64,000 nt of DNA. It comes from Myxococcota bacterium. GTDB taxonomy: Bacteria; Myxococcota_A; UBA9160; JAFDDA01. The stretch covers positions 2,112,001-2,176,000 of the forward strand of contig OZ245817.1 of NCBI GenBank assembly GCA_965228475.1. The letters are read 5' to 3'. Below the pieces are notes generated by a model. That model saw nothing but the letters and a program-made list of their open reading frames with translations, did no database searches and was not told the DNA's origin. Both the position numbers and the translations under genes were made by a program. Below, one piece after another: positions 1 through 26,151 of this stretch; positions within the stretch are counted from its first letter, which is position 1, and each line of letters begins with the position of its first letter.

Positions 1-2
1 TC

Positions 3-992
3 GACGCGCCCGCCGCGCACGAACACGCTGTGGCGGAAGAGATCCCCGAGGTAGTGGTCCGGGTGCGGGTTCTCGCGTCCGCCGAGGCGCGTGCGGAGGC
101 TTGCGAAGGCGACGCCGCACAGGGCGGCGAGGTCCACCGCGGCGGCGTAGAGCAGGCCGTGGTTCTTCAGCCAGTAGCGTCGCCGGGATTCGAACCAATA
201 GTCGGGTAGCCGCGGATGGTCGCTCTCGCGCCGGTCGATCCCGGAGCTCTGGGCCGCGATGTGCGCGACGCGGCTCTCGGCGACGTACCAGCACGGGTAG
301 CCGGCGAGCCGCGCGCGGCGGCACAGGTCGACCTCCTCGAAGTACATGAAGAAGCCTTCGTCGAGCAGGCCGACCTCTTCGAGCACCTCGCGGCGGATCA
401 TCATGCTCGCGCCGGCGACCCAGTCGATCGGGTGCGTCTCGGGCACGAGGGGCGGGGCGATCTGCCAGCGGGCGAGGAGCCGGGAGACCACGCCGAGGCC
501 GATCGCGCCATCTAACTCGTTCTGGAGCGAGGGAAAGCGGTAGCGCGAGTGGTGCTGGGTCCCGTCGGCGTCCTCGAGCCGGCTGCCCGCGATGCCGACG
601 TCGCCGTGGGCCTCGAGGAACTCGAAGAGCGCCTGGCCCGCGCCGGGCCGGGGGATCGTGTCGGGGTTCAGGATCCACACGTAGCGGTAGGGCTCGGCGG
701 CCAGGGCCGGGCGGATCGCGAAGTTGTTCCCCGCGGCGAAGCCGCCGTTGTGGGGCGAGCGCTCGAGCTTCGCCCAGGCTCCGAACCCCTCGGCCTCGAT
801 GGCCGCCTCGATGCGTTCGGCCGAGCCGTCCCCGGAGTCGTTGTCGACGACGACGGCACGGCAGCCGGGCTGGCCCGGGATCTGCGCCGCCAGCTCGCGC
901 AGGCAGCCGAGGGCGAGGTCCGCGACGCGGTAGTTCAGGATGACGACGAGGACGTCGCGCAGGGATGCCGGCCCGCGCGCGGTGTCTTCCAT
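3..992 (-). CDS. Glycosyltransferase family 2 (WbbL/WsaE-like), 3' end runs off the window
   Basis: Not in ORF track. Manual translation from ATG 992: MEDTARGPASLRDVLVVILNYR...VVVDNDSGDGS...NGGFAAGNN...LNPDT...DWVAGASMMIRREVLEEVGLLDEGFFMYFEEVDLC. Confidence 0.9.
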   Translation of the reverse strand, partial: MEDTARGPASLRDVLVVILNYRVADLALGCLRELAAQIPGQPGCRAVVVDNDSGDGSAERIEAAIEAEGFGAWAKLERSPHNGGFAAGNNFAIRPALAAEPYRYVWILNPDTIPRPGAGQALFEFLEAHGDVGIAGSRLEDADGTQHHSRYRFPSLQNELDGAIGLGVVSRLLARWQIAPPLVPETHPIDWVAGASMMIRREVLEEVGLLDEGFFMYFEEVDLCRRARLAGYPCWYVAESRVAHIAAQSSGIDRRESDHPRLPDYWFESRRRYWLKNHGLLYAAAVDLAALCGVAFASLRTRLGGRENPHPDHYLGDLFRHSVFVRGGRV

Positions 993-1000
993 GGGCTCCG

Positions 1001-2131
1001 TCACCCGAGCAGCATCGGGCCGTGGCCGTCCATGTTCGTGAGGTGGAGCCCGGCGAGGCCTTCTTCGTTCGGGCCGAAGCGCTCGCGCAGGGCGGGGGAG
1101 GCCGCGAAGAAGCGGCGATCCTGGACCAGGGCGAAGCCGTGGGCCGCGAAGCCGTCGAGCCAGGCGGGGTGGGACTGGTTCGACATGATGAGGTCGACGC
1201 CGCGGGCCCGGAGGAAGCGGTAGGCGGCGCCCACCACGGCCTCGGCGTGCTCGGGGAGGGCGAGCCCGTCGACGATCGAGCCGACCCGGCAGTTGCCGAA
1301 GCGCCGGTCGCTCTCCATCTGCTTGTCGAGCACGACGGCGAAGCCGAGCGTCTCGCCGCCCCGGGTCACGCGCAGCCGGAGCCCCGGAGGCCAGCCGACC
1401 TCGGGCACGAGCAGGTTCATGGTCGCCGCGTCCCGTTGGGCGATGCCGTAGTAGGCCGGCGCGCAGCGCTCCCAGAGATCGTCGGCCCAGCTCCCGAACT
1501 CGGGCACGAGCTCCGCTTCCGCTGCCGCCGAGCGCCGTCCGCGCAGGGCGAGGCCGGCGTGCATCGCCCGGAGCCCGATCGCGCCCGCGCCGCTGAAGGC
1601 CAGGGCGTCGAGCGCGAGCCGCCGCGCGGGGCTGGTGCGGAGGTAGGTGTTGTGGCGCAGGAAGCGGGCCGGTCGCAGGACGCGCAGGCAGAAGGGCGTC
1701 GGGTGGATCAGCCAGCCGAGGCGCCGGAGCATCTCGAGCATGGGCTGTTCGAGCCCGCCGTGGCCCCAGCTGTAGAGCAGCGGGTACTGCTTCTGCATCT
1801 CGCGCATCAGGCGTATGCCGAGCGTGGCGAACTTCCGGGAGAGGACCCCTTCGGTGATCGGGCCCTGCCAGTCCGCCACGACGTCGGTCTCGCCGCCGAG
1901 GCGCCAGGTGTGGGGCTTCAGCGCGTAGCCGCCGCGAACGAAGGGCTCGCTGCCGCCTTCCTCGACGGCGAGGTAGTACTCGCGCCAGGTGTGCTCGCCG
2001 CGCTTCGGGAGCCACTCGTCGACGGGGCTCTCGTACCAGCGCCAGTGGGTACCGCCCGCTTCCATGCGGCGGTTGAAGTCTCGAACGCGGGGGATCCACT
2101 CCTCCGTGTAGGGGACGACCTGGGTTCGCAT
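1001..2131 (-). CDS. GNAT/FemAB-fold acyltransferase-like protein
   Basis: ORF 1001..2170 trimmed to ATG 2131 (MRTQVVPY). Two GNAT-like halves (REYYLAVEE..VRGGYAL; GETLGFAVV..GSIVDGL); lies in a polysaccharide operon. Confidence 0.55.
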   Translation of the reverse strand: MRTQVVPYTEEWIPRVRDFNRRMEAGGTHWRWYESPVDEWLPKRGEHTWREYYLAVEEGGSEPFVRGGYALKPHTWRLGGETDVVADWQGPITEGVLSRKFATLGIRLMREMQKQYPLLYSWGHGGLEQPMLEMLRRLGWLIHPTPFCLRVLRPARFLRHNTYLRTSPARRLALDALAFSGAGAIGLRAMHAGLALRGRRSAAAEAELVPEFGSWADDLWERCAPAYYGIAQRDAATMNLLVPEVGWPPGLRLRVTRGGETLGFAVVLDKQMESDRRFGNCRVGSIVDGLALPEHAEAVVGAAYRFLRARGVDLIMSNQSHPAWLDGFAAHGFALVQDRRFFAASPALRERFGPNEEGLAGLHLTNMDGHGPMLLG

Positions 2132-2251
2132 CTTGGGCGGGCCTCTCCGAAAGGTTCGCAACGATAGCAACCGGCCGCGGACCGAGCCGGGCCTCGGCCG
2201 GCGCTCCGCGCTCTCGTCAGGTTCGCGGCTGCGGCTCTTCCCCGTTTCGGC

Positions 2252-3718
2252 TCAACGGCGTGCGGTCCGAAGCCCGAGCCAGCCGACGTAGAGCGCGAGG
2301 GGGGCCAGCGCGACGAGACCGAGGAGGCCGAGACACCAGGGTGCATCCGGAAGCGCGAGGGCTCGCGCCGCGGCGGCGGCGCCGGGGATCGCCAGGGCGG
2401 CGAAGGCGGCGCCGAGCAGCGTGAAGCCCGCGTCGCGTAGCAGTGTCGGAACACCCCCGCAAGCGATCTTCAGCGCCACGAAGAGGTACCCGCAGGCCGC
2501 GCCCGCGCCGGCGCCGACGATCAGGCCCGGCAGGCCGCCGGCGAGGAAGCCGAGCCAGCATCCCGCCGCGCTCGCCACGGTCTTCACGATGTTCGAGAAC
2601 GCCCAGCTGCGCGAATCGCCCCAGGCGAGCAGCACACGGCCCGCGGACTCCTGGAGGAAGGTGAACCAGACCGGAAGGAGGGCGAGCTGGGCGATCCAGC
2701 CCGCGTCGTGATAGCGGGCGTCGTAGAGGTAGAAGAAGAACGAGGGGGAGACCACGGCCAGCCCGAGCGTGGCCAGCAGGCCGAGGGGCAGCATCAGGGA
2801 GCGGGCCCGGTCGAAGTTCTCGGCCAGGCGGGTCTCGCCCCCGCGGTAGGACTCCGAGAGGGCCGGCATCAGCACGTTCTGGATGAGGCGCCCCGAGACC
2901 TGGCCGAGCAGGAGCGGGAGCATGATGGCGATGCTGTAGACCCCGAGCGTCGCGATCGGCAGGAGCTTCCCGAGCAGAACGACGTCGATGCGGAGCGCCA
3001 GGAAGGTGAAGAGCACGGCGACGAAGATCCACTTGCCGAAGGCGAAGAGCTCGCGCGCGGCGTCGCGGTCCCAGGCGAGGCGATCGCGTTCGCCCGGCAG
3101 CAGCGTGTGGCTGAGCAACACGCGGACGGAGACGCCGACCAGGCCGCCCACCACCAGCGCCCAGACCGAGCGCGTCCACCAGGCGACGAGGCACATCACC
3201 ACGACGGCGACGGCCCGTTCGGTGGCCTCGATCGCGGTCACCCGTCCGAGGTGCAGCCGCCGCGTCTCGAGCGCGAGGCGCATGGATTGGAAGCCGAGGA
3301 TCACCGCCGCGAAGGTCACGGCGGGGACGATGGCCACGAGCTCGGGCTGCTCGTAGATCCGCGCGAGGGGGACCGCCGCGGCGAGGGCCACGAGCCAGAT
3401 CAGGCCGCCGCGCGCGGCCTCGATCGTCCACGCCGTGTTGCGGAAGACGCGCTCTTCGCCCCGGGGATGCCGGATGATGGCCGGCTGGATCCCGACGCTC
3501 GACATGAGCTGGAGGCCGGTGAGCAAGAGGTTCGCGAGGGCCATGAGTCCGAAGGCCTCGGGGAACAGGAGCCGCGACAGGATGACGTTGCCCGCGAGGC
3601 GGAGCCCCTGCTCCGCGCCGAGGCCGATCACGCTGGCGACCGCGCCGCGGGCGGCGCGCGTGCCGAGGGCGCCCTTGGCGGGTTCGTTCTCCGCGGGGGC
3701 TTGGGGATCGCTACCCAC
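2252..3718 (-). CDS. wzx: Oligosaccharide flippase (Wzx family)
   Basis: About 12 hydrophobic segments; ILSRLLFPEAFGLMAL and ELFAFGKW..RIDVVLLGKLL..LGVYSIA motifs. Confidence 0.9.
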   Translation of the reverse strand: MGSDPQAPAENEPAKGALGTRAARGAVASVIGLGAEQGLRLAGNVILSRLLFPEAFGLMALANLLLTGLQLMSSVGIQPAIIRHPRGEERVFRNTAWTIEAARGGLIWLVALAAAVPLARIYEQPELVAIVPAVTFAAVILGFQSMRLALETRRLHLGRVTAIEATERAVAVVVMCLVAWWTRSVWALVVGGLVGVSVRVLLSHTLLPGERDRLAWDRDAARELFAFGKWIFVAVLFTFLALRIDVVLLGKLLPIATLGVYSIAIMLPLLLGQVSGRLIQNVLMPALSESYRGGETRLAENFDRARSLMLPLGLLATLGLAVVSPSFFFYLYDARYHDAGWIAQLALLPVWFTFLQESAGRVLLAWGDSRSWAFSNIVKTVASAAGCWLGFLAGGLPGLIVGAGAGAACGYLFVALKIACGGVPTLLRDAGFTLLGAAFAALAIPGAAAAARALALPDAPWCLGLLGLVALAPLALYVGWLGLRTARR

Positions 3719-3757
3719 GAGGAAGACGCGCCGGCCGCGGGGCGTGGGAACCGGGCA

Positions 3758-5353
3758 CTAGCTGGCCTCGAGCATCGCGCGAAGGGCTTTGCGGTCGACC
3801 TTCCCGTTGGCGTTCAGGGGGAACTCGGCGACCTCGCGGATCTCACGCGGTGCCATGTAGGCCGGCAGCCGGGCCCGGGCGGTCTTGAGGAGCGCGCCGG
3901 TGTCGATCCCGGAGCCGACGAAGGCGACCACGCCGTCCGCGCCTGCCGCGTTGACGGGCCAGCCGACGGCGATCGCGGTGTCCGTGCCCGCGAGGTCCCG
4001 CAGCAGTGCCTCGACTTCGCCGAGCTCGACGCGATAGCCCTGGATCTTGATCTGGTGGTCGGCGCGGCCCAGGTATTTGATCGGTTCGTCCCCGAGCGGC
4101 CGCCGAACGCGGTCGCCGGTGCGATAGAAGACCCGGTCTTCGCCCGGCGGCTCGAGGAACGCCGCCGCGGTCTTCTCCGCATCCCGCCAGTAGCCGGGTG
4201 TGAGCTGGGGCCCGGTCATCAAGAGCTCTCCGGACTCGCCGGGCTCGACCTCGTGCAGCGCCTCGTCGACCACGCGCACCTCCATGCCGGGGTAGGGCGC
4301 GCCGATCGGGACGAGGCCCTGCTCGCACTCGGCCGGCGAGCTCACCGGGTCGAAGCGGTAGAGCGTACAGGCGATCGTGAGTTCCGTCGGGCCGTAGAGG
4401 TTCTCGAGCGTGGCGCCCGGAGCCGCTTCGGCGAAGGCCGTCGCGAGATCGGCGGGCAGCGCCTCGCCGCAGAAGAGCGCCCAGCGCAGCGATGGGAAGG
4501 CGCCGGGCGTGAGCTTCCGGAGCTTGTTCAGGACGGCGGCGGTCGAGGGGACGGAGAACCAGACCGTCGGCTTCGCGGCGGCGACGTAGGAGGCGGGCAT
4601 CATCTTCTGTCCGGCCGTCGGGCAGCACACGCAGCCGCCGCACTGCCAGGCCAGGAACATGTCGAACACCGAGAGGTCGAAGGTCAGGTCGAAGAGCTGC
4701 GTGAAGCGGTCCTCCTCGGTCACGCCGTAGCGCTCGGCCATGACGTCGAGGAAGTGTTCGGCGTTGCGGTGCGCCACCATCACGCCCTTCGGGATGCCCG
4801 TGCTCCCCGAGGTGAACAACAGGTAGGCGACGTCGTCGGGGGTGGCTGGACGCGGTTCGAAGCCCGCGCCGGAGGCGAGCTCGGCGGCGCCGAGGAAGCG
4901 GTGGCCGGGGAACCGGGCCGCGAGCGGGGCGAGCGTCTCGGCGTCGGCCTCGGGCGCCAGGATGCAGCGCGGCTCGGAGACGCCCTCGAGCACGTCGCCG
5001 AGGAGCTTCAGTCCGGCCGCGTCGACGATCACGCTCCGGCAGTCCGAGCGCTCGAGCATCGTGCGCGTGCGGTCGGCCGGGAACTGCGGGTTCAGCGGTA
5101 CGTAGCCGTGGCCGCGGAAGAGCGCTGCGAGGATGCCGGCGTAGGCGGTGACCGAGCGGTGGGCGAACACGGCGGTCAGCCGCTCGGGCTCGAGGGCGCC
5201 GGCGGCTTCGAGGGTCGCTGCCAGCCGGCGCGCGCGGTCGTCGAGAGCCGCGTAGGCGATGGGCTCGCCATCGACCTCGAGGGCCGGGCGGTCCGGGAAC
5301 CGGTCGCGGGATGCCAGGAAACCCGAGCGAAGCGTGCGCGTCGATTCGCTCAT
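3758..5353 (-). CDS. Stand-alone amino acid adenylation enzyme (DltA-like)
   Basis: ATG 5353 (MSESTRT). YLLFTSGSTGIPKGV, FDLSV, LFCGE, NLYGPTE, YRTGD, GYRVELGEVE and NGKVDRKAL core motifs. Confidence 0.92.
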   Translation of the reverse strand: MSESTRTLRSGFLASRDRFPDRPALEVDGEPIAYAALDDRARRLAATLEAAGALEPERLTAVFAHRSVTAYAGILAALFRGHGYVPLNPQFPADRTRTMLERSDCRSVIVDAAGLKLLGDVLEGVSEPRCILAPEADAETLAPLAARFPGHRFLGAAELASGAGFEPRPATPDDVAYLLFTSGSTGIPKGVMVAHRNAEHFLDVMAERYGVTEEDRFTQLFDLTFDLSVFDMFLAWQCGGCVCCPTAGQKMMPASYVAAAKPTVWFSVPSTAAVLNKLRKLTPGAFPSLRWALFCGEALPADLATAFAEAAPGATLENLYGPTELTIACTLYRFDPVSSPAECEQGLVPIGAPYPGMEVRVVDEALHEVEPGESGELLMTGPQLTPGYWRDAEKTAAAFLEPPGEDRVFYRTGDRVRRPLGDEPIKYLGRADHQIKIQGYRVELGEVEALLRDLAGTDTAIAVGWPVNAAGADGVVAFVGSGIDTGALLKTARARLPAYMAPREIREVAEFPLNANGKVDRKALRAMLEAS

Positions 5354-5358
5354 GGGGT

Positions 5359-5604
5359 CTATTGGACGAAGAAGGTCTGGTAGAGCGTGTTCACGTCCTG
5401 GAGCGACTCGGGCTCGATCGCCTCGACGTCGACCTCCTCGCCGAGCAGGCTCTCGATGAATACGATCAGCTCGACCACGTCGAGGGAGGACAGGAGGCCC
5501 GACTCGAGAATCGGCGTCTCGTCGTCGAGCCCCGCGGCGTCCGCCTGGGCGCGGTCGAGGATCCAGCTCCGGAGCTGCTCCTTGATTTTCGCTTCTTCCG
5601 TCAG
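5359..5604 (-). CDS. Acyl/aminoacyl carrier protein (DltC-like), probable CTG start
   Basis: Not in ORF track. 81 aa: MTEEAKIKEQLRSWILDRAQADAAGLDDETPILESGLLSSLDVVELIVFIESLLGEEVDVEAIEPESLQDVNTLYQTFFVQ. Acidic, with GLLSSLDVVEL pantetheine-site-like motif. Confidence 0.88.
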   Translation of the reverse strand: MTEEAKIKEQLRSWILDRAQADAAGLDDETPILESGLLSSLDVVELIVFIESLLGEEVDVEAIEPESLQDVNTLYQTFFVQ

Positions 5605-6476
5605 AGCGCCGGGACCTCGTCGAGAATGCCCGTCTCGAGGAAGTAGTCGACGAGCTTCTTCGAGGCGCGGGCGCGCTGCTCACGGCAGGGCTCGGCCTCG
5701 AGGGCGAACTTGCGGGCCTCGTAGCCGTCGGGCACGCCCGCGTCCTTGTAGACGGCCGGGTTGTAGAAGTCGGCCCAGGAGGCGCGCAGGTAGTTCACCA
5801 GCCACTCGCGGAGGCCTTCGAGGGTTCCCTCGGGCCACTTCGGCGAGTACTCGTCGAACATCTCCTTGAGGAGCTGGCGTCCGAAGACGATGTGGCGCGC
5901 TTCGTCCCGATGATGGAAGCGGTTCACCTCCTGGACGATCTGCGGCAGGCGGTCGTCGTAGGACAGGGCGACGTTGTAGTAGTCGCCGAGCTCCTCGATC
6001 ACGAGCACCTTGATGAAGAAGACGACGTCCTCTTCGCCCTTCGCGTACTTGCGCGGGAGGGCGAGCTTCTTCAGCGGGTACACCTTGCCGGCGTAGCGGT
6101 TGCAGAACATGGCGAACATGACCATGTGCCGGTTCTCTTCGCCGAGGAAGTGGTGGATGTACTCGGTCACGTCCGCGTTCTGGCGCGAATACATCTGGTT
6201 GCACAGGCCCTGGACGAGCGGGCGCTCGCCGTGGAGCGTGAGGCTGAAGAAGTTCGCGAGCTCGTAGAGGCTCAGGCGGCGCCGGGTGGGTTCGTCCAGG
6301 GCATCCCAGGCCGGGGTGCCGTAGAGCGAGATCAGCTCCGGGGGCATGCAGTAGAGCTCGGGATCGAGCTTCTCGGGCCAATCGAACGCCGTGTAGACGT
6401 CCCAGGTCTTCTTGACGGAGGCAACGGAGAGCCGCGCGGCGAGGTCCGTTGCGGCTTCCTGGGTGACGAGTCCCAT
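5601..6476 (-). CDS. AurF-family ferritin-like diiron N-oxygenase
   Basis: FDWP..PELISLYGTPAWDAL N-terminus; EENRH, IEE and DEARH diiron ligand motifs. Confidence 0.85.
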   Translation of the reverse strand: MGLVTQEAATDLAARLSVASVKKTWDVYTAFDWPEKLDPELYCMPPELISLYGTPAWDALDEPTRRRLSLYELANFFSLTLHGERPLVQGLCNQMYSRQNADVTEYIHHFLGEENRHMVMFAMFCNRYAGKVYPLKKLALPRKYAKGEEDVVFFIKVLVIEELGDYYNVALSYDDRLPQIVQEVNRFHHRDEARHIVFGRQLLKEMFDEYSPKWPEGTLEGLREWLVNYLRASWADFYNPAVYKDAGVPDGYEARKFALEAEPCREQRARASKKLVDYFLETGILDEVPAL

Positions 6477-6755: not shown

Positions 6756-8522
6756 ATGGCAGAGATCTTCGGCATCGTCAGCACGGGCGCGCTCACGCCC
6801 GAGGACCGGGCCGCCTTCGAGGCGCTCGCGGCGGAGTTCCCCGTCGGCGCCGGGGGGCGGGTCGAGCGCCAGGAAGGGCAGGCCGCCCTGGTTGGCGTGG
6901 TGTCCCATCACGCGGCGGACCCGGTCGGTGTGGCTTCGGGCCACGAGCCGGCTGCGGCCTGGTTGGGTCTTCCCGGGGGCGAGGCGGGCAAGCCGCCCTC
7001 CTGGCTGGCCCATCACTCGGGTGCCCCGGCACGCTGGGAGGCGAGGGCCCCCTGGCTCGCATGCCTGATCCCTGCGGCGCGGCCCGAGGCGCGGGTCGTC
7101 GGCGACCCCTTCGGTCTCTCCCCGCTCTATTGGCGAGCCGACGGCGCGCGGGTGCTGTTCGCTTCCCGGGTGGCGCCGCTGCTGCGGGCCTCCGGCAGCA
7201 GCTGGCGCCTCGACCGAGCCGCCCTCCACGACCTGCTCGTCTACGAGCACGTCACCGGGCACCGGACCCTCGCCGAGGAGGTCCGCGTGCTCGCACCCGG
7301 GGCGTTCCTCGAGATCGCCAAGGGGCGCGTGCGCGAGCGGCGCTATTCGGACGGCCCCGTCGCGCCCTTGCCGGGCCAGGGCCTCGGGAACTCAGCCGTC
7401 GCCGAGGCGCTCGGGGTCGAACTCGGCGGCGCGGTGGCACGCGCCGTCGACGGCGTCGACCGCGTGGCGATAACGCTCTCGGGCGGGCTCGATTCCCGCG
7501 CGCTGCTCGGGTTCGCAGCAGACGCAGGGGCGAGCCTCCGCGCCTACACCTTCGGGGTTCCGGGTTCGCGGGACGTGAAGCTCGCCGCCGAGCTCGCCGC
7601 CGCCCGGGGCGTGCCCCACGAAGTGCTCACCATCGAGCCTTCGTTCCTCCCCGAACAGCTCGAGCACGCCGTCGACGTCACGGGCGGGATGGTCGGCGCG
7701 GCCCACTTCCACATCCTCTCGCTGGTCGATCTCGTGGCCGAGCGGGCTGACGCGGTGCTCGACGGCCTGGGTGGGGATGCCTTCACGGGAGCCCATCTCG
7801 GCTGGGGCATGTTCGCGACGCGCTCCTCGGCGCGCGTGGCCGAGCTCGTGCAGGCTCAGCGGGCGACCGGCTTCGCCGACGGCACCGCGCGCAACGCCCT
7901 GCTCGAGCCGGACTGGGCGTTGCCCCCGGGCGAGACCGCCGATGCCACGCGCCGTCACGCGGACCCGTCCGCCCAGGCCTGGTGGACGGCGCACCGCTTC
8001 GACCTGCTCGAGCGGCAGCGCCGCTTCATCCAGTTCGGCCCGCACCTGTTTCGCGCGAGGATCGACGTGCGGACGCCCTTCTACGATCGGGCGGTCGTGG
8101 ATCTGCTGCTTCGCGCGAGGGCCGACGCGCTGTTCGAGCAGCGGGCCTACCGGTGCATGCACGCTGCCTGCCTGCCGGACCTCGCCGCCGTGGACGAGGC
8201 GGGGCGAGGCCTGCCGGTCGGCGCCTCGACGGCGCGGCGCATGGCCCGGCGCATCGAGGACGGGTTGCGCCGACGGGTCCCCGGCGGCTCGCACGCGCCG
8301 AGCACGCTCCCGACCGACTATCCGGCCTGGCTTCGCGGCCCGCTGCGCGCGTTCATCGAGGAACGCCTCCTCGACGGACACGGCCCGCTGGAAGGCATCG
8401 TCCGGCGCGCGGCCATCGAGCAGCTGATCCGCGATCATGCGGACGGCCGCGACCACACGGCACGGCTGTGCGTCCTGCTTTCGCTCTCGACCTGGCTCCG
8501 GCGCGCGGGGCGCCCCTCGTGA
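6756..8522 (+). CDS. Asparagine synthetase-like ATP-dependent amide ligase lacking the N-terminal Cys
   Basis: DPFGLSPLYW, TLSGGLDSR PP-loop, DGLGGD, RTPFYD; begins MAEIFG rather than MCG. Confidence 0.8.
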   Translation: MAEIFGIVSTGALTPEDRAAFEALAAEFPVGAGGRVERQEGQAALVGVVSHHAADPVGVASGHEPAAAWLGLPGGEAGKPPSWLAHHSGAPARWEARAPWLACLIPAARPEARVVGDPFGLSPLYWRADGARVLFASRVAPLLRASGSSWRLDRAALHDLLVYEHVTGHRTLAEEVRVLAPGAFLEIAKGRVRERRYSDGPVAPLPGQGLGNSAVAEALGVELGGAVARAVDGVDRVAITLSGGLDSRALLGFAADAGASLRAYTFGVPGSRDVKLAAELAAARGVPHEVLTIEPSFLPEQLEHAVDVTGGMVGAAHFHILSLVDLVAERADAVLDGLGGDAFTGAHLGWGMFATRSSARVAELVQAQRATGFADGTARNALLEPDWALPPGETADATRRHADPSAQAWWTAHRFDLLERQRRFIQFGPHLFRARIDVRTPFYDRAVVDLLLRARADALFEQRAYRCMHAACLPDLAAVDEAGRGLPVGASTARRMARRIEDGLRRRVPGGSHAPSTLPTDYPAWLRGPLRAFIEERLLDGHGPLEGIVRRAAIEQLIRDHADGRDHTARLCVLLSLSTWLRRAGRPS

Positions 8523-9538
8523 CCGGGGCCACGGGCATCGGCGCGATCGCGATCGGACGCAACGAGGGCGCGCGGCTCGAGCGCTGCCTCGATTCCCTGG
8601 TCGGCGTCGCGGACGTCGTGGTCTACGTCGACAGCGGTTCGACCGACGGCTCCCGGGAGCGGGCGCGGGCCCGGGGCGTTCACGTGGTGGAGCTTCCGAA
8701 GGGGACCGGCTTCACCGCCGGCCGGGCGCGCAACCTCGGCTTCGAGACCCTCCGCGCGCAGGCGCCCGATCTCGCCTTCGTCCAGTTCGTCGACGGGGAC
8801 TGCGAGGTCGTCCCCGGCTGGCTCGGGGACGCGAAGGCGCACCTCGAAGCGCATCCCGAGGTGGCGGTCGTCTGCGGGCGCCGGCGCGAGCGCGCGCCCG
8901 AAGCCACGCCCTACAACCGGATCACCGACATGGAGTGGAACACGCCGATCGGCGAGCGGGACGATTGCGGGGGCGACGCACTCTTTCGCGCCGGGGTGTT
9001 CGCCGCCGCCGGAGGCTTTGACCCGAACCTGATCGCCGGCGAAGAGCCCGAGCTCTGTCTCCGGATCCGCCGCGAGGGCCACCGGATCCACCGCATCGAC
9101 CGGGACATGACGCTCCACGACGCGGACCTCCGGTACTTCGGGCAGTGGTGGCGGCGCCAGGTGCGGTCCGGGCACGCCTACGTCGAGTCGGTGCATCTCC
9201 ACGGCGGCAGCGAGGACCGCTTCTTCGTGCGCAACCTGGTCTCCATCGGGGCCTGGGCGCTCGCGCCCCCGGCGCTCGCGCTGCTCGGCGTGCTGTTCTT
9301 CGGGTGGCCCGGGCTCCTGCCGCTCGGGCTCTACGCGGTGCTGGCCGCGCGGGTGTTCCGGGCCAGGCGTCGCCTCGAGGATCCGGCGGGGCACGCCGCG
9401 CTCTACGCGGCTTCCGTCGTCGTCGGCAAGTGGGCCGAGTTCCAAGGCACCGTCACCTACGCCTGGAACCGCTTCGTGCGCGGCCGCCGGACCGGGCTGC
9501 TCGAGTACAAGGGGCCGGACGAGCCGTCGTCTTCCTGA
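8519..9538 (+). CDS. Glycosyltransferase family 2
   Basis: GTG 8519 overlaps the upstream TGA. IGRNEGARLERCL, YVDSGSTDGS, FVDGDC, AGEEPELC, C-terminal TM helices. Confidence 0.9.
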   Translation: MTGATGIGAIAIGRNEGARLERCLDSLVGVADVVVYVDSGSTDGSRERARARGVHVVELPKGTGFTAGRARNLGFETLRAQAPDLAFVQFVDGDCEVVPGWLGDAKAHLEAHPEVAVVCGRRRERAPEATPYNRITDMEWNTPIGERDDCGGDALFRAGVFAAAGGFDPNLIAGEEPELCLRIRREGHRIHRIDRDMTLHDADLRYFGQWWRRQVRSGHAYVESVHLHGGSEDRFFVRNLVSIGAWALAPPALALLGVLFFGWPGLLPLGLYAVLAARVFRARRRLEDPAGHAALYAASVVVGKWAEFQGTVTYAWNRFVRGRRTGLLEYKGPDEPSSS

Positions 9539-16462: not shown

Positions 16463-17851
16463 CTAGGAGATCCGCGGCACGGACCCGAGCACCGGCAGAT
16501 CCGCGAGGCCCTCGACCTGGCTCGCGGAGATCAGCACCGGGTCGAGCGTCTCGAGCACCACGGCGATGCCGAGCGCCATGCCGAGGGAGACGACCAGGCC
16601 GGCGGCGAGGTACTTCCAGCGGTTCTTCGAGGGCCGCGTCGGGACCTCCGCCCAGTTGAGGACCGAGACGCGCTCGCCGTGCTGGGCGGTCTCGAGGCTC
16701 TGGGCGAGCTCGGCCTCCTGCACTTTCCGCAGGTAGTCGACGTAGGTCTCGCGCAGCACCTCGGCCTTCTCCTCGAGAGCGGAGAGCGCCTCGGAGCGCG
16801 AAGGCGTGCGCGCGACCTGGGAATCGAGGTCGCGCAGGTCCGCCTCCGTCTGGTTCAGCTGGGCCCGGAGTTCGAGCAGGGTGCCTCGCTCCGCGGCGAC
16901 CAGGGCCGCCTGGGGATTCGCCGCGACCGCCTGGGGGTTCGCGGCGATCTCGGCCTCGACCAGGGCGATCTCGTCCTTCAGCGAAGTCACGTCCGGGTGC
17001 CGTTCGGTCTTGATCGAGAGCTCGCGGGCCAGCTGGGCGCGCAGCTCCAGGAGCCGGCCGTCCGGTGTCGCCGTCGGGGCGGCTGGCGTCTGCGAGAGCT
17101 GCGCCATGCGGTTCGAGGCTTCCGCGATCTGCAGGGCCAGGGACTGCCGCTGCTCCTGGAGGCGGTCGAGCTTGCCGAGGTTCGCTTCGAGCTCCGAGGG
17201 CAGCTCGCCGCGGTAGGTCTCCTTGAATTCGCGGATCGCGGCGTTCTGGGCGCGCAGCTCCTCGTCCGCCTGTTCGAGCTGGCGACGCAGGAAGTCCGTG
17301 GTCAGCTGGGCCTGCTTCGTGCGGCTGCGGATGTTCTCGGCGGGCAGGAGACCGGCGACCTCGTTCGCCACGCCCGCGGCGGCGATCGGCGTGTCCGCCT
17401 CGAAGCGCACGGTGAAGATGCGGGCGCTGTCGGGGCCGGTGCGCGTGAAGCCGGCGGCCGGCTGGATGCGGGTCTCGAGCCGGGCCCGCGCCACGAGCTC
17501 GCCCATCGGGACCTTGCCGCGCAGGGCGGGGTAGAGATCGTGCTTCTCGATCAGGTCGGCGAGGGTCTCGTGGGTGAGCACGCGGCCGACCAGGGCGTCG
17601 ATGCGCTGGAGGGAGTCGTCGGCCACGGTCGGCCGGACGAAGTCCTCGGGGATCTGCTGTCGTTCGACGAGGACCGAGGCCTCGGCCTCGTAGCGCGGCT
17701 TCATCATGAAGAGCAGGGCGCCCGTCGCCACGAGCCCGACCAGCCCGGCGGCCAGCATCCAGCGCCAGCGGCGGCGCACCATGCCGACCGGGTCGGAGAG
17801 GAACGCCGGAAGGCTCGAACCTCCGCCGTCGTCGAATTCGTCCATGCTCAT
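16463..17851 (-). CDS. Polysaccharide chain-length determinant (Wzz/GumC, Wzc N-terminal part)
   Basis: TM-coiled coil-TM; PRYEAEASVLVE, TERHPDV, LPVLGSVPRI. Confidence 0.88.
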   Translation of the reverse strand: MSMDEFDDGGGSSLPAFLSDPVGMVRRRWRWMLAAGLVGLVATGALLFMMKPRYEAEASVLVERQQIPEDFVRPTVADDSLQRIDALVGRVLTHETLADLIEKHDLYPALRGKVPMGELVARARLETRIQPAAGFTRTGPDSARIFTVRFEADTPIAAAGVANEVAGLLPAENIRSRTKQAQLTTDFLRRQLEQADEELRAQNAAIREFKETYRGELPSELEANLGKLDRLQEQRQSLALQIAEASNRMAQLSQTPAAPTATPDGRLLELRAQLARELSIKTERHPDVTSLKDEIALVEAEIAANPQAVAANPQAALVAAERGTLLELRAQLNQTEADLRDLDSQVARTPSRSEALSALEEKAEVLRETYVDYLRKVQEAELAQSLETAQHGERVSVLNWAEVPTRPSKNRWKYLAAGLVVSLGMALGIAVVLETLDPVLISASQVEGLADLPVLGSVPRIS

Positions 17852-18852
17852 CGGGACGGTTCCTCGTCGCTCTCGAAGTCTTCTTCGCCGCTCAGGACTT
17901 CCTCGTCGCGGCGCATGTAGTAGCCGTACTGGCTGCCGTGGCGGCTCGTGCCGGCCTCGTTCAGGTGGATGCCGATCAGCTGGTCGCGCGGGAGGAGGCC
18001 GAGGGCCTCTTCCATGTTCGAGCGGGACGTCTGCCCGGACCGGACCACGAACAGCGCAGCGCCGAAGTGCGGCATGGCCAGGGAGACGTCCGGGACGAGC
18101 AGGACCGGCGGCGTATCGGCGACGACCAGGGCGTAGCGTTCGCCGAGCTCCTCCATCGCGCGGCCGAAGGCGGCGGTGGCGAGCATCTCGTGGGCGTGCG
18201 GGATGGGGCGCACGACCGGCAGGACGTCGAGGTCCGTCATGCTCGTGCGATGGCAGGCCTCGGCGAGGTCCGCCTCGCCGCGCAGCACGGCGTCGAACCC
18301 GACCTTCGGCCGGATCCCGAGGCCGCGCGCCACGCTCGGCCGGCGCAGGTCGAGGTCCACGAGGATCACGCGGCGCCCGGCCGACATGGACGCGAGCGCC
18401 ATGGCCAGGTTGCAGCTCGTGACGGTCTTGCCTTCGTGGCGCAGCCCGCTCGTGACGGCCAGACGGTTCACACCCCGGGCCTCGAGTTCGCGGCGAACGC
18501 GCAGGGCCAGATGGCGAAAGCGCTCGGTGACGGCGCCGGGCGGAGCGGACTCCATGGCGCGCGCTTGCCAGAAGCCCGAGCGGGTGGGCCGGATTCTCAG
18601 GATCTCCCGGTTCGGATCGAGGGGGCGGGGCGCCGGCGGGGCGGGGCGCGCCGGTGCGATCCGCGGCTCCGCGGGCGGCGGGACGTCCCGCTTCCGCTCG
18701 GCATCCGGTTTCCGTTCGGCATCCGGGGTCGGGCGCAGCTCACGTTCGGCGTCCGGGTCCCTTGCCGGGGGCCGGGGCTCGCGTTCGCCGCGCTCTTCGC
18801 GCGCGGCGCGTTCGGCCCGGGCCCGGCGGAGGGCATCGGCGATCTCACCCAT
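17848..18852 (-). CDS. CpsD/CapB family BY tyrosine kinase
   Basis: ATG 18852 (MGEIADAL); TSGLRHEGKT Walker A, LVDLDLRRP, DTPPVL, C-terminal YGYY. Confidence 0.9.
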   Translation of the reverse strand: MGEIADALRRARAERAAREERGEREPRPPARDPDAERELRPTPDAERKPDAERKRDVPPPAEPRIAPARPAPPAPRPLDPNREILRIRPTRSGFWQARAMESAPPGAVTERFRHLALRVRRELEARGVNRLAVTSGLRHEGKTVTSCNLAMALASMSAGRRVILVDLDLRRPSVARGLGIRPKVGFDAVLRGEADLAEACHRTSMTDLDVLPVVRPIPHAHEMLATAAFGRAMEELGERYALVVADTPPVLLVPDVSLAMPHFGAALFVVRSGQTSRSNMEEALGLLPRDQLIGIHLNEAGTSRHGSQYGYYMRRDEEVLSGEEDFESDEEPSR

Positions 18853-19771: not shown

Positions 19772-19871
19772 CGCGAAAACGTTACCTCACTTCCCAGGGC
19801 CACCCCCGGGGGGTGCGCACCGCACGCTTCCCGAGTGAGAGTCCCTTTGTGGCTCGCGAGTGACGGGCGGT

Positions 19872-19887
19872 TGCGGACGGATTGCCA
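19872..19887 (-). promoter_or_regulatory. Possible sigma54 -24/-12 promoter for the ATPase-wzc operon
   Basis: Minus strand TGGCAATCCGTCCGCA: GG-N10-GC spacing is correct but the -12 element is weak. Confidence 0.3.
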
Positions 19888-24490: not shown

Positions 24491-25356
24491 CGTCCGGGCT
24501 GGATAGCGGTTCGCTCGGGGGGAGGGAAGGGCCGTCGTCCGCCTTCGACGCGCTGCTGCTCGGCGCCGTGCTGCTCGTGTTCTCGCCGGCTTTCCTGGCC
24601 ATGGCCGAGGTCTGGGAGGTCGTCGACTACCAGGCGCACGGCTTCCTCGTCGGTCCGGTCGCGGCGGCGATGGCATGGTCACGCCGGGAGTCCTTCGCGG
24701 CGGCGAGTGCGCCGGGCGCGGGGCTCGGCCTCGTCCTGCTCGTGGCCGCGCTGCTCGCCTACGTCGCGGGGGTGATGGCGGAGGTGCTCTCGCTGCAGGG
24801 CGTGGCGCTGCCCCTCGCGCTCACCGGGCTCGTTCTCTGGCGGCGCGGCGGTGCCGCGTTGCGCGTGCTGGCGTTCCCGATCGCGTATCTGCTCTTCATG
24901 GTCCCCGTCCCGCCCCAGTGGCTGACGCCCCTCGTGACCAAGCTCCAGGCCTTCGTGACGAACGCCGCGATGACGGTGCTGCGCCCCCTCGACGTTCCGG
25001 TGCTGCAGGAAGGCAACGTGCTGGTCCTGCCCGAGGGCTCGCTGTTCGTGGCCGAGGCCTGCAGCGGGATCACCTCCATCGTCACGCTCCTGCCCGTGGC
25101 GGCCCTCCTGATCTTCCTGGCGCCGACGACCCGGCGGCAGTCGATCGGTCTGCTGCTCGCCGTCGTCCCGATCGCGATGTTCTGGAACCTGGTGCGGGTG
25201 CTCGTCACGGTCGCCGCCACGCGCCAGGTCGGCGTCGTCCAGGCGACGAGCGGTTCTCTCCACGATACGGCGGGAATGCTCACGTTCGTGGCGGGTTGCG
25301 TGACGCTTCTGCTCGTTTCCTTCCGGTTCGAGCCGCCGGAGCCTGCGCGCGCCTGA
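24361..25356 (+). CDS. Exosortase (XrtA/EpsH family); start uncertain
   Basis: YQAHGFLV, FPIAYLLFMVPVP, EGNVL, VAEACSGI (Cys), NLVR (Arg), LHDTAG (His). Confidence 0.9.
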   Translation: MPQEEATSRATPGEREASTPGPARTERGIEAPSPEPGERDPAASSGLDSGSLGGREGPSSAFDALLLGAVLLVFSPAFLAMAEVWEVVDYQAHGFLVGPVAAAMAWSRRESFAAASAPGAGLGLVLLVAALLAYVAGVMAEVLSLQGVALPLALTGLVLWRRGGAALRVLAFPIAYLLFMVPVPPQWLTPLVTKLQAFVTNAAMTVLRPLDVPVLQEGNVLVLPEGSLFVAEACSGITSIVTLLPVAALLIFLAPTTRRQSIGLLLAVVPIAMFWNLVRVLVTVAATRQVGVVQATSGSLHDTAGMLTFVAGCVTLLLVSFRFEPPEPARA

Positions 25357-25470
25357 GCGGCGAGCGCGCGTGACCCAGGTCACCGATCCCATTCGGCCTT
25401 TCCGAGTAACCTCGTCCTGCGACGGGGGCACTCACCGTCGAACGCCGCCGAACCCGGCCGAGGATTTTCC

Positions 25471-26151
25471 ATGCTGAAGCGCACCCACCGAACGCTCTCC
25501 CTGCTTTCCGCTCTCGCCGTCGGACTGTTGCTCGGCGCCACCGCCCAGGCGGCGCCCATCGCCGACGTCCTCTCGGGGACCGACGGCAACTTCCGCTTCT
25601 CTGTCGTGCACACGTCGACGGGCTGCAGCGATGGACAGTGCGGCTCGATCCTCGGCGAAGTCAGCCTCGGAGCTGGCGGTGGCAACTGGCTCTCGGACGG
25701 CACGAACGCCTTCCTCGACCTCGAACTCGACGTGAACGTCGGCGGCTCGATCTCGACCTACAACGCCAAGGGCGCCTTCAGCGAGACCGCGCTCACCGAC
25801 TTCGGCACCCAGGCCGACGTGCTGCTCGGTTCCCTCGACGTCACGCTGCTCTCCGGCGCCGACGACGCCGGCCTCGACGGCCTGACCTTCCTCTTCGAAG
25901 ATCGGAACTACTCGACGGCGGCCAACCCGCCGAACGGCCTGACCGGCAACATGCTGACGCTCTGGGGCGCCACGGCCTACACCGGAACGCCGACCCTCGG
26001 CTCCGCCCTCGACCTCGTGCCCGGTGGCATCGGCATCGACCTGCGCGTCGAGATCGGCCCGCCGATCCCGGAGCCCTCGGCCAAGCCGCTCTTCCTGGCC
26101 GGCATCGCGGTGGTGGCCTTCGGCGCCTCGCGCATGCGGCGCAGCGCCTAG
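25471..26151 (+). CDS. PEP-CTERM sorting domain protein
   Basis: Signal peptide (AQA-AP); C-terminal IPEPS + hydrophobic helix + RMRR; directly after the exosortase. Confidence 0.9.
   Translation: MLKRTHRTLSLLSALAVGLLLGATAQAAPIADVLSGTDGNFRFSVVHTSTGCSDGQCGSILGEVSLGAGGGNWLSDGTNAFLDLELDVNVGGSISTYNAKGAFSETALTDFGTQADVLLGSLDVTLLSGADDAGLDGLTFLFEDRNYSTAANPPNGLTGNMLTLWGATAYTGTPTLGSALDLVPGGIGIDLRVEIGPPIPEPSAKPLFLAGIAVVAFGASRMRRSA

Follow-up and report, generated by a model that had tools for sequence, protein, structure and literature searches.

What does an AurF-family diiron oxygenase do inside a polysaccharide operon? The question is raised by positions 1 to 6476 of a 64,000-nucleotide stretch of Myxococcota contig OZ245817.1 (the window), where six tightly coupled genes lie on the minus strand. 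In order of transcription, they encode an AurF-family diiron oxygenase (5601..6476, 291 aa; PF11583, 157.6 bits against a cut-off of 29.6), a small carrier protein (5359..5604, 81 aa), a stand-alone amino-acid adenylation enzyme or A domain (3758..5353, 531 aa; TIGR01733, 356 bits against 317.4; AMP-binding, 257 bits), a Wzx/MOP flippase (2252..3718, 488 aa; PF13440, 154.6 bits; PF01943, 77.5 bits), a 376-aa protein of an unnamed family that we call X389 (1001..2131), and a GT2 glycosyltransferase (1..992; PF00535, 45.3 bits) whose 3' end lies beyond the window edge. The stop codon of the diiron gene overlaps the carrier start in the sequence CTGA. The spacers that follow are 5 nt (carrier to A domain), 39 nt (A domain to Wzx), 118 nt (Wzx to X389) and 8 nt (X389 to GT2). 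A sequence-only reading of this DNA had proposed this gene order and tight minus-strand coupling, and the family matches, predicted fold and junctions agreed with it. Our answer, to which we assign a probability of roughly 55%, is that the cassette is a module for carrier-protein-dependent oxidative tailoring in a Wzx/Wzy, exosortase-type polysaccharide locus.

At about 1-26 kb the window holds an XrtA-like EPS locus, which includes the cassette. Divergent from the cassette, on the plus strand, are an asparagine-synthase-like protein (6756..8522; PF00733, 89.8 bits), in which no GATase domain was found, and a second GT2, GT2b (8468..9538; PF00535, 60.2 bits). The stretch 16463-21584 encodes Wzz, a tyrosine kinase, an XrtA-associated ATPase and a priming transferase. 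An exosortase and an adjoining PEP-CTERM protein follow on the plus strand (24568..26151; PF09721, 185.5 bits; TIGR02602, 166.9 bits against 105.55), with a C-terminus, IPEPS...RMRRSA, that fits the PEP-CTERM pattern.

Conservation of the cassette was analyzed in a survey of 234 diiron-enzyme relatives in contigs of one genome per species, from which the best 80 loci were taken. In 47 of these loci (class 1), a four-gene module of tandem GNAT (X389, see below), diiron enzyme, carrier and A domain was found again, with identities of 45-68%. Among these 47, a carrier was present in 44, an A-domain orthologue (at least 45% identity) in 42 and the GNAT in 39, and all three in 34. The GNAT gene was immediately upstream on the same strand in 34. 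Linkage of the cassette to polysaccharide genes, which had been claimed earlier, was confirmed: at least one glycan gene was found in 43 of the 47 class-1 loci, and a deacetylase (Polysacc_deac_1 or DUF2334) in 32, while the 25 class-2 and class-3 loci, serving as internal control, gave no glycan match. When only the 31 class-1 loci with at least 8 kb on both sides were considered, the counts were 28, 28, 28, 25 and 29. Because it is conserved across related loci, the arrangement is far beyond chance. The neighbors were conserved to different extents: GT2b, which travels with the module, has tblastn matches (43-55% identity) in 25 of the 80 loci, Burkholderiales loci carry an orthologue of the first GT2 (42-51% identity) immediately upstream of X389, and the asparagine-synthase-like protein has weak orthologues (25% identity) in three class-1 loci. 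Of 151 genomes from the same order, 15 carried the diiron enzyme and 15 the GNAT; 14 carried both.

The PP-binding score of the carrier (19.9 bits, E 8.9e-4) was just under the Pfam cut-off of 20.8, its best NCBIfam matches were all carrier proteins, each below cut-off, and the serine motif LSSLD was kept in 9 of 9 aligned orthologues. Since the gene has no ATG, GTG or TTG start, its start must be CTG 5604, which aligns with the Met of eight orthologues; such a start could mean low or no carrier expression in the window's genome.

The carrier gene was directly 3' of the diiron gene in 40 of the 47 class-1 loci and in all 14 loci of class 3, a sister clade. In class 3, the two genes occur with a SerRS-like amino-acid:[carrier-protein] ligase (match to PDB 3mey, E 2.3e-32) in place of the A domain, a non-orthologous displacement. 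The conserved adjacency of diiron and carrier genes with two unrelated loading enzymes supports the earlier claim that the substrate of the diiron enzyme is an amino acid tethered to the carrier. This swap of loading enzymes and the A-T-GNAT fusions described below support action of the module on aminoacyl-carrier, which we consider highly probable. Complex prediction of the diiron enzyme with the carrier lent weak support (0.47 against 0.00 for the best control). Of 157 solved complexes 116 passed the mark used, as did 2 of 215 mismatches, and scores of 0.60 or less that passed it came from only 18 of the 157 solved complexes and from both passing mismatches. The runs shared at least 92% of contacts, with a partner pLDDT of at least 83.

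The best solved relatives of the stand-alone A domain were the second A domain of LgrA, VinM (8k4r, E 2.8e-102), 6akd, 4oxi (E 4.9e-73), which we take to be AlmE, and DltA, and all the closest ones use small amino acids. The specificity positions, assigned with PheA numbering, read D-L-F-T-L-C-L-I-A-K and were nearly invariant in the window protein and 40 orthologues. We know of no specificity code that matches them, and they are unlike the canonical glycine code of a neighboring NRPS. The substrate would be a small neutral amino acid, with glycine or alanine as best guesses.

These relatives recall the D-alanylation of teichoic acids by DltA, DltC, DltB and DltD, the analogy drawn in the sequence-only reading. 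Both systems have a stand-alone A domain and a small dedicated carrier that would bring a small amino acid to a cell-surface glycopolymer. If the cassette were a plain Dlt/Alm-like aminoacylation system for control of polymer charge, the diiron gene would be an unrelated passenger. The A domain is indeed DltA-like in part, but its score against the DltA equivalog (TIGR01734) was 236.5 bits with a cut-off of 559.85, and that of the carrier against the DltC model 21 bits with a cut-off of 68, so the analogy failed the family tests. Furthermore, the window ORFs scanned gave no match to an MBOAT/DltB or DltD family, transfer would be made by a cytosolic tandem GNAT, and an oxidase stands between loading and transfer. 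The supposed passenger is translationally coupled to the carrier gene, and the adjacency of the two across classes 1 and 3 likewise makes this explanation very improbable. In the Alm system, transfer is made by a lipid A acyltransferase and not by a GNAT. AlmE/AlmF/AlmG of Vibrio cholerae are described as a trio of A domain, carrier and transferase by which the glycolipid lipid A receives glycine (PMC4278540); the cassette shares the trio and differs in its oxidase, its target and the GNAT fold of its transferase.

The oxidation chemistry was approached through the diiron enzyme itself. Among 29 aligned sequences, E72, E84, E113/E114, H117, E161/E162, H188/H189, E192 and H195 were invariant, including the pattern H188-x3-E192-x2-H195 and ExxH at 114-117. 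In a Foldseek search, the predicted model (pLDDT 91.5) matched CmlI (5hyh, E 3.4e-05, TM 0.62) and AurF (2jcd, TM 0.61-0.69) best, at 12-17% identity, with R2lox and RNR R2 ranking behind them (TM about 0.45). An extra histidine, which precedes the second ExxH glutamate by four residues and is a mark of AurF and CmlI, was invariant, and R2lox was gapped there in the profile alignment. To our knowledge, all characterized PF11583 members are N-oxygenases. Hydroxylation and desaturation, too, are known from the class of ferritin-like diiron enzymes, so the enzyme may instead hydroxylate or desaturate a carbon of the tethered substrate in the same setting, for example by C-alpha hydroxylation of a glycyl thioester to give a glyoxylyl group, or by beta-hydroxylation. 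The sequence comparisons leave room for this: similarity to AurF or CmlI was not significant (phmmer, CmlI E 0.44), and the only PDB sequences matched by the 29-sequence profile were R2lox/RNR-like chains (E 8e-4 and 3e-3). A companion NRPS of the locus also carries a luciferase-like monooxygenase (LLM) domain like the one found within myxothiazol MtaG, where it reportedly hydroxylates the glycine alpha-carbon. Against it are the strong Pfam AurF score, the closer fold and the extra histidine. We put the chance of N-oxygenation at slightly less than even, and regard carbon oxidation as possible and rather unlikely.

Carrier-bound N-oxygenation has precedents. HamC oxidizes NRPS-tethered valine, and HamC/PvfB with HamD/PvfC (fragin, valdiazen, pyrazine N-oxides) combine an AurF-homologous diiron N-oxygenase with a carrier-tethered amino acid (PMC11659414). 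There the pathway makes a small molecule, the carrier is within an NRPS-like protein, and no glycan genes or GNAT are involved. For althiomycin, Alb2/AlmD, another AurF-like enzyme, is proposed, not demonstrated, to make the oxime from the amino group of an assembly-line-bound intermediate (PMC3445576); this pathway ends in an antibiotic instead of a polymer.

X389 had no Pfam, NCBIfam or PDB sequence match. Its AlphaFold model (pLDDT 94.3) was a tandem GNAT, so that the predicted GNAT fold of the fifth protein was borne out with high confidence. The VIA Z-scores were 18.3 for N-myristoyltransferase (NMT), 16.5 for Eis2, 15.6 for a tandem GNAT, 13.5 for MshD, 9.9/10.6 for FemX/FemA and 9.6 for MprF. 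These acyltransferases share the fold at only 7-15% identity, and X389 matches no GNAT Pfam model. The gene start was set at 2131, not 2170, because the homologues only start to align at residue 14-17. At E<=1e-3 the family counts 929 representatives, and the named members among the best 120 are all labeled 'hypothetical'. AMP-binding(+FkbM)-PP-binding-X389 fusions occur, and these support the claim that the GNAT draws its donor from a carrier; off-loading from a carrier is likely, and the donor is probably an acyl-carrier, not acyl-CoA or aminoacyl-tRNA. In Drosophila Ebony, a GNAT-type domain that follows A-PCP transfers the aminoacyl group from its thioester to an amine (PMC10510592). Its A-PCP-arylalkylamine N-acetyltransferase-like layout is that of the AMP-binding-PP-binding-X389 fusions P0271 and P0239, although Ebony is eukaryotic, has a single GNAT and uses a biogenic-amine acceptor.

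The cassette is not self-contained. To the left of the window are a glycine-type NRPS module with embedded LLM, C-A(LLM)-T, and a one-module PKS, KS-AT-KR-DH-ACP-TE, both 9-20 kb from the window start. The same side also encodes a PPTase of the Sfp type and a pair made up of WecG and a polysaccharide deacetylase. The earlier statement that condensation domain, thioesterase and DltB/DltD are lacking held for 1001-6476 and for the window ORFs scanned, but not for the locus, because this NRPS-PKS-TE set lies outside the window. Both the set with its PPTase and the WecG-deacetylase pair (59-68% and 44-54% identity) accompany the module in other genomes; in Burkholderiales loci the pair follows directly after the A domain. 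The NRPS scored 515.8 bits with TIGR04020 and has glycine-like specificity positions (D-I-L-x-M-G-M-I-W-K). Its A domain with embedded monooxygenase resembles those of the MtaG/MelG type. In three loci (L010, L037, L067) the NRPS is F-A(LLM)-T, resembling the F-A-PCP initiation module of LgrA (PMC10510592). This NRPS differs from LgrA and from MtaG/MelG in feeding a one-module PKS-TE inside a polysaccharide locus.

The module may serve the NRPS-PKS line. Its oxidized aminoacyl group or carrier would be joined to the glycine-derived, PKS-extended chain, with the GNAT N-acylating the tethered amino acid or coupling both pieces, and the product would be either a lipopeptide/polyketide that is glycosylated or an acyl group of composite origin that only then goes onto the polymer. 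NRPS/PKS orthologues (42-59% identity) flanked 19 of the 47 class-1 loci, and four of five genomes without one within 10 kb had a full-length PKS orthologue elsewhere. Four loci break the module: L037 is a PKS-diiron-A-NRPS operon with no carrier or GNAT nearby, the diiron gene of L067 directly precedes F-A(LLM)-T, and L042 and L047 have GNAT and diiron genes with no A domain or carrier within 10 kb, so the diiron enzyme's partner may sometimes be the NRPS. In 11 of 11 loci, class-2 paralogues have as partner a stand-alone LLM that shares 49-57% identity with the LLM domain of the NRPS, and NMT, the best GNAT fold match, acylates an N-terminal glycine. However, the NRPS of L010, L037 and L067 opens with a formyltransferase domain and thus would be a self-sufficient initiation module without a donor site. 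For two of six other-genome NRPS matches, chosen by coverage of the N-terminal region that holds the window's C domain and not by domain scan, no diiron enzyme was found in the genome (86% and 89% completeness). In the order sample, 13 of the 15 diiron-positive genomes had the NRPS, but 12 genomes had the NRPS without the diiron enzyme, and the GNAT adjoins the diiron gene and GT2 genes, not NRPS/PKS, in 34 of 47 loci. We concluded that the module is an add-on to a larger NRPS(LLM)/PKS-TE/PPTase system that also occurs without it, and that its service to the NRPS-PKS line is unlikely.

For the tailoring module, the chemical steps that we infer from gene content, folds, conservation and co-occurrence would run as follows. 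The A domain would adenylate a small neutral amino acid and load it on the 81-aa carrier, whose priming would fall to the Sfp-type PPTase of the same locus. The diiron enzyme would oxidize the tethered amino acid, most likely at nitrogen, to a hydroxylamine, oxime or nitro group. The cytosolic tandem GNAT would then take the acyl group off the phosphopantetheine arm and transfer it to an acceptor before Wzx flips the repeat unit. The most plausible acceptor would be an amine that the co-travelling deacetylase frees on an amino sugar added by WecG to the lipid-linked repeat unit. We put the chance that the final acceptor is a glycan at about even; the NRPS in most diiron-positive genomes of the order sample means that it could be the NRPS-PKS product instead of a sugar.

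Overall, the sequence-only reading was supported in part: for the cassette, its glycan linkage, the GNAT fold and the carrier-bound substrate. It did not hold for the Dlt analogy, held only locally for the lack of a condensation domain and a thioesterase, and missed the wider system outside the window. We found no description of the cassette in the open literature. The results point to an undescribed kind of sugar-polymer decoration, made via a previously unnamed transferase.

Because the window has a G+C content of 72%, genes were called by third-position G+C and then checked against family models. All six minus-strand genes that the sequence-only reading had described between 1 and 6476 could be matched to a family or a fold. 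The AurF-family diiron protein (5601-6476) matched PF11583 with 157.6 bits against a cut-off of 29.6, over profile positions 3-282 of 282. It is followed by an 81-aa carrier protein (5359-5604), which scored 19.9 bits for PP-binding, slightly below the cut-off of 20.8, and whose top NCBIfam matches were carrier proteins only, each below its cut-off. Then come a stand-alone adenylation (A) enzyme (3758-5353; TIGR01733, 356 bits against 317.4), a Wzx/MOP flippase (2252-3718; PF13440 (Polysacc_synt_3) with 154.6 bits and Polysacc_synt with 77.5 bits, both above cut-off), a 376-aa protein of a family that we call X389 (1001-2131), which had no sequence match in Pfam, NCBIfam or PDB, and a GT2 (1-992). 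The AurF stop overlaps the carrier start, and the following junctions have gaps of 5, 39, 118 and 8 nt. As far as about 26 kb, the neighbouring sequence forms an exosortase-type EPS locus with two asparagine-synthase homologues, a second GT2, a PKD-domain protein, a Wzy-like membrane protein, Wzz, a tyrosine kinase, an XrtA-associated ATPase, a priming phosphotransferase, EpsI, an exosortase and a PEP-CTERM protein. The initial observation was therefore confirmed. Directly after the exosortase (24568-26151, plus strand), a 226-aa secreted protein ends in IPEPS, a hydrophobic stretch and RMRRSA, a PEP-CTERM sorting signal.

Upstream of its phosphopantetheine serine, the carrier gene contains no ATG, GTG or TTG. 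Since the gene lacks a normal start, a frameshift fusion with the AurF gene was considered. It was rejected, because 20/20 aligned diiron homologues share the same C-terminus and because a CTG at 5604-5602, overlapping in CTGA with the AurF stop, falls in the alignment on the start Met of eight separate orthologous carrier genes. This CTG could be a genuine but rare start codon, the site of a restart that depends on coupling, or the result of a mutated start codon.

We also examined 32 kb to the left of the window, where the same polysaccharide locus continues. From far to near, a Crp-type regulator comes first, followed by a set of genes from an NRPS to a glycosyltransferase (G000:C1:2092052-2107988; L086:12052-16488 and L085:485-15988 in the two flank segments). 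The NRPS (1478 aa) has the layout C-A(LLM)-T, its A domain being split by a TIGR04020 luciferase-like monooxygenase (LLM; 515.8 bits against 244.45); after it come a one-module type I PKS of 2143 aa (KS-AT-KR-DH-ACP-TE) and an Sfp-type PPTase. Next are a GDSL protein, a GFO/IDH/MocA oxidoreductase, a methyltransferase, a pair of WecG and Polysacc_deac_1, and finally a GT2, a 2OG-Fe oxygenase and a GT4 that abuts the GT2 of the window. The earlier claim that no condensation domain or thioesterase is present was thus right for 1001-6476 and wrong for the locus, which holds the C domain of the NRPS and the TE of the PKS. The specificity positions of the NRPS, D-I-L-x-M-G-M-I-W-K in this genome and in three others, are close to DILQLGLIWK, which we take to be the canonical glycine code.

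The X389 family was characterized mainly by its fold. When all 1.84 billion representatives were searched with HMMER, 929 relatives passed E<=1e-3, almost all with a length of about 370 aa. Among the best 120 in a 5.8-billion collection, every named one was a "hypothetical protein" and none had a precomputed Pfam domain. The window protein matched 0 Pfam families even at E<=10, and PF02388 (FemABX) in particular gave no match; GNAT sequence models were matched by 0/8 stand-alone members. Sequence searches against solved structures returned nothing usable, so that for this protein, as for the diiron protein, the folds alone were informative. An AlphaFold model built from a 44-sequence alignment reached pLDDT 94.3 and pTM 0.91. 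Its top Foldseek matches in PDB were Eis-like tandem acetyltransferases and N-myristoyltransferases (NMT), at E about 2e-9. The exhaustive structural aligner VIA, run on 48,161 chains, gave its highest score for NMT 8fbt (Z 18.3, 308 residues aligned, rmsd 5.2), followed by Eis2 (Z 16.5) and the tandem GNAT 7q3a from M. abscessus (Z 15.6). Tandem GNATs that use aminoacyl groups ranked lower: Sbb17 11.0, FemA 10.6, FemX 9.9 and MprF 9.6. In the ESM Atlas the nearest clusters were unnamed, and in more distant clusters a minority of the proteins had Acetyltransf_1 or Acetyltransf_9. The predicted structure makes the 376-aa protein a tandem GNAT whose family has no name; the GNAT fold had been named before any search, and VIA (Z up to 18.3) and Foldseek (2hv2, E 1.8e-09) bore this out.

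Four fusions were found among the long X389 relatives. P0271 (1311 aa) and P0239 (980 aa, with a truncated N-terminus) both have the order AMP-binding, PP-binding, X389, with the AMP-binding domain interrupted by an FkbM methyltransferase, and in P0208 an Acetyltransf_6/FemAB domain precedes X389. An off-loading enzyme is typically placed directly after the thiolation domain. The layout of P0271 and P0239 is the same A-PCP-GNAT type as that of Drosophila Ebony, as described (PMC10510592), and the off-loading step that we propose for the module resembles that of Ebony. The family is conserved to its last residues (alignment consensus ...NRGDGDGPxxL; window 1001-1040, minus strand). NMT, the best fold match, presumably uses its C-terminal carboxylate in catalysis; a parallel with the conserved X389 C-terminus would be a lead only, because the last block of the model has a pLDDT of 65.

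The diiron enzyme has 662 homologues at E<=1e-5, of which the top 120 carry PF11583 without exception. Residues invariant in an alignment of 29 sequences from three types of genomic context were E72, E84, E113/E114, H117, E161/E162, H188/H189, E192 and H195. Among these, E114-x2-H117 and H188-x3-E192-x2-H195 make up two ExxH motifs plus a His four residues ahead of the second Glu, all putative metal ligands; we regard the extra His of H-x3-E-x2-H as the one that serves AurF and CmlI as a further ligand. The model (pLDDT 91.5) has a ferritin-like helical fold, and Foldseek ranks 1-6 were all CmlI and AurF (E 3.4e-05 to 8.5e-04, TM 0.53-0.69), followed by R2lox and RNR R2 (TM about 0.45). A phmmer search against solved structures gave CmlI at a non-significant E of 0.44, and neither AurF nor CmlI came up with the 29-sequence profile at E<=0.01; its matches were two R2lox/RNR-like chains only, at E 8e-4 and 3e-3. 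We classify the enzyme as a distant PF11583 subfamily, because sequence alone gives no tie to AurF or CmlI, and "N-oxygenase" is our best guess for it, not a finding. Ten stretches of the 5.0-Mb genome exceed the PF11583 cut-off, the window copy with 157 bits and the other nine with 30-58 bits.

Complex prediction of the diiron enzyme with the carrier gave a score of 0.47, against 0.00 for the best control, in a range (0.60 or below) where just 18/157 solved complexes reached the mark, together with both mismatches that passed. Over all scores, the mark was reached by 116/157 solved complexes and 2/215 mismatches. Contacts agreed between runs by at least 92%, and the pLDDT of the partners was at least 83. 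The prediction weakly suggests that the two proteins interact.

The A domain carries the motif FDLSVFD, and its Asp, which we take to bind the alpha-amino group, is kept in the window and in all 40 aligned orthologues. Its best solved relatives were the second A domain of LgrA, which is presumably glycine-activating, 8k4r (E 2.8e-102), 6akd, 4oxi (E 4.9e-73), which we take to be the glycine-specific AlmE, and DltA; all of these use small amino acids. The chain 8k4r is VinM according to a preprint (bioRxiv 10.64898/2026.07.20.739675). The specificity positions read D-L-F-T-L-C-L-I-A-K (PheA numbering), and when their columns were sampled in the window and the 40 orthologues, 30 sequences were identical, eight had His239, two had Ile322 and one had a gap at 517, columns 330/331 being one residue off. 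We know of no code that matches these ten positions. Because the pocket residues are bulky and uncharged and the alpha-amino-binding Asp is present, the pocket favours a small neutral amino acid, of which glycine would be one candidate.

Dlt and Alm are known systems for the carrier-protein-dependent aminoacylation of surface polymers. The module resembles Dlt and AlmEFG in the loading and carrying of an amino acid as we propose it, and HamC and PvfB in the proposed oxidation step. It differs from Dlt and from the XrtA-associated ligase by failing the family-model tests for both: scores were below cut-off for DltA (TIGR01734, 236.5 against 559.85; NF003417, 243.7 against 476), for DltC (NF003464, 21 against 68) and for the XrtA-associated acyl-CoA ligase (TIGR03098, 230 bits against 592.35). 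Neither MBOAT (DltB) nor DltD was present among the ORFs scanned in the window and the left flank, in agreement with what had been read from the sequence. One related locus, L001, has an MBOAT gene. To our knowledge, no role has been assigned to the acyl-ligase and carrier genes that accompany exosortase systems since the system was first described.

The genomic neighbourhood of the diiron enzyme was surveyed in one genome per species over 185,579 species. This gave 234 relatives, and the best 80 of the 234 loci were retrieved together with flanks of up to 10 kb on both sides and sorted by tblastn with the window and locus proteins and by Pfam on the ORFs of 16 loci. The type of the window (class 1) comprised 47 loci, 31 of them with at least 8 kb on both sides; in the following, counts in brackets refer to these 31. 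A carrier was present in 44/47 (28/31), an A-domain orthologue of at least 45% identity in 42/47 (28/31) and a tandem GNAT in 39/47 (28/31), in 34 of the 47 directly upstream on the same strand; carrier, A domain and GNAT occurred together in 34/47 (25/31). At least one glycan gene was found in 43/47 (29/31) and a deacetylase (Polysacc_deac_1 or DUF2334) in 32/47 (22/31). The link between the cassette and polysaccharide genes, first noted in one operon, recurs in most of class 1. Most often the genes are arranged as GT2, GNAT, diiron, carrier, A, from which the window departs only by a Wzx between A and GNAT; in Burkholderiales, WecG, a polysaccharide deacetylase and the second GT2 come after the A gene. 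By their record titles, the class-1 loci belong to three groups: Burkholderiales (Rhizobacter, Methylibium, Rubrivivax, Aquincola), Pseudomonadales and Steroidobacteraceae; Myxococcota/"Deltaproteobacteria"; and Planctomycetota. Loci titled "Spirochaet-" were not counted as an extra phylum, because one of these titles has an isolate label with "MYXO".

Class 3 consisted of 14 loci (L063-L066, L068-L070 and L074-L080) from Acidobacteria, Cyanobacteria, Nitrospirota, Omnitrophota and Bdellovibrionia. Here the order, as at L064:6472-13648, is AMP-binding, KASIII-like, diiron, carrier, a SerRS-like class II synthetase-like protein of 286-292 aa and a thioester reductase, and the cassette also has a 194-aa ferritin/rubrerythrin-like protein. 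None of the 14 loci gave a glycan match, and the cassette has the look of a small-molecule or lipid pathway not described before. Bll0957, a solved amino-acid:[carrier-protein] ligase, is homologous to the synthetase-like protein (E 2.3e-32). The diiron-carrier pair is thus accompanied by two unrelated amino-acid-loading enzymes, which is our strongest argument that the diiron enzyme probably acts on an aminoacyl-carrier.

Further loci bear on the main rival explanation, in which the module acts on or with the NRPS-PKS product. Class 2 (L009, L024, L028, L030, L031, L036, L038, L039, L044, L050 and L054) contained mostly second diiron copies in Rhizobacter and Methylibium (MAGs); carrier and glycan genes were not found in these 11 loci, and in 11/11 a stand-alone LLM, 49-57% identical to the NRPS-embedded LLM, adjoins the diiron gene. 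This constant pairing speaks for the rival, as does L067, one of the remaining loci, where the diiron gene lies directly ahead of an NRPS; the other seven could not be classified, five of them being short contigs. In L028 (class 2), the diiron-LLM pair adjoins a PEP-CTERM protein. The rival is also favoured by L037, where one operon (L037:3168-17504) holds a PKS, the diiron enzyme, an A domain, a formyltransferase-A(LLM)-T NRPS, GT2 and EpsI, and a separate carrier and a tandem GNAT were not found within 10 kb. This operon suggests that the diiron enzyme can also partner carriers borne by an NRPS or PKS. A version of the rival in which the module supplies a starter unit is, however, opposed by the NRPS itself, which starts with a formyltransferase domain in place of the C domain in L010, L037 and L067. 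Its orthologues are formyl-initiating, with no donor site, in 3/3 other genomes scanned, and the NRPS is also found without the module. The idea that the NRPS C domain draws its donor acyl group from the carrier was weakened by the same replacement in these 3/3 genomes. It was also weakened by two of the six other-genome NRPS matches over the C-domain region, which came from genomes where the diiron enzyme was not found.

PKS (42-57% identity) or NRPS (49-59%) orthologues were present in the fetched flanks of 19/47 class-1 loci, and 4/5 genomes without either within 10 kb had a full-length PKS orthologue elsewhere (50-51% identity, about 2120 aa). WecG orthologues were 59-68% identical and deacetylase orthologues 44-54%. 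Among 151 genomes sampled from the order of the window's genome, 15 had the diiron enzyme and 15 the GNAT, with 14 genomes having both; neither was present in the sampled same-genus and same-family genomes (completeness 89% and 81%). The NRPS was found in at least 25 genomes, 13 of the 15 diiron-positive ones and 12 others, a floor because the search filter was stricter. When six NRPS loci from diiron-lacking genomes were inspected, four were near glycan genes, PKS or both, one had a PPTase only and one had nothing further. Because the NRPS-PKS-glycan genes travel with the module, yet the NRPS is also found without the diiron enzyme, the module seems to be an add-on to an NRPS-PKS-glycan system able to do without it.

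The reading that we prefer is the modification of the polysaccharide itself. The A domain would load a small amino acid on the carrier, the diiron enzyme would oxidise the carrier-bound amino acid, and the tandem GNAT would pass the oxidised group from the phosphopantetheine arm on to its acceptor, all in the cytoplasm and ahead of Wzx action. The most economical acceptor, purely by inference, would be an amino sugar added by WecG, at the amine that the co-travelling deacetylase exposes. Whether the oxidation falls on nitrogen at all is a second uncertainty, independent of the question that the rival raises about the acceptor. Precedents for the oxidation come from two reports: HamC oxidises a tethered valine (PMC11659414), and Alb2/AlmD was proposed as the maker of the althiomycin oxime (PMC3445576). 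A search of the open-access literature returned no description of the cassette, and returned the combination of a diiron N-oxygenase, a carrier and glycine in small-molecule pathways only. We estimate a chance of roughly one in five that the EPS of several phyla is decorated with an N-oxygenated aminoacyl group (e.g. N-hydroxyglycyl, hydroxyiminoacetyl or nitroacetyl), which an AurF-family diiron enzyme produces on a dedicated carrier and a new family of acyl-carrier-reading tandem GNATs attaches, perhaps as a hydroxamate-type unit together with the neighbouring formyltransferase-NRPS.

To the best of our knowledge, aminoacylation by Dlt/Alm and diiron N-oxygenation by HamC/PvfB are known only apart, the latter only in small-molecule pathways. 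Here, predicted carrier aminoacylation and diiron oxidation are combined in Wzx/Wzy polysaccharide loci with an NRPS-PKS line, and the large unnamed transferase family X389 gains a testable role. If the chemistry is as we propose, it would represent a new, directly testable class of glycan substituent, give a function to a large "hypothetical protein" family of at least 929 representative clusters, and tie natural-product enzymology to exopolysaccharide and PEP-CTERM biology. The substituent would be the first N-oxygenated one on a glycan and would offer a route to metal-binding or redox-active slime, for example in relatives of Rhizobacter, Methylibium and Rubrivivax.
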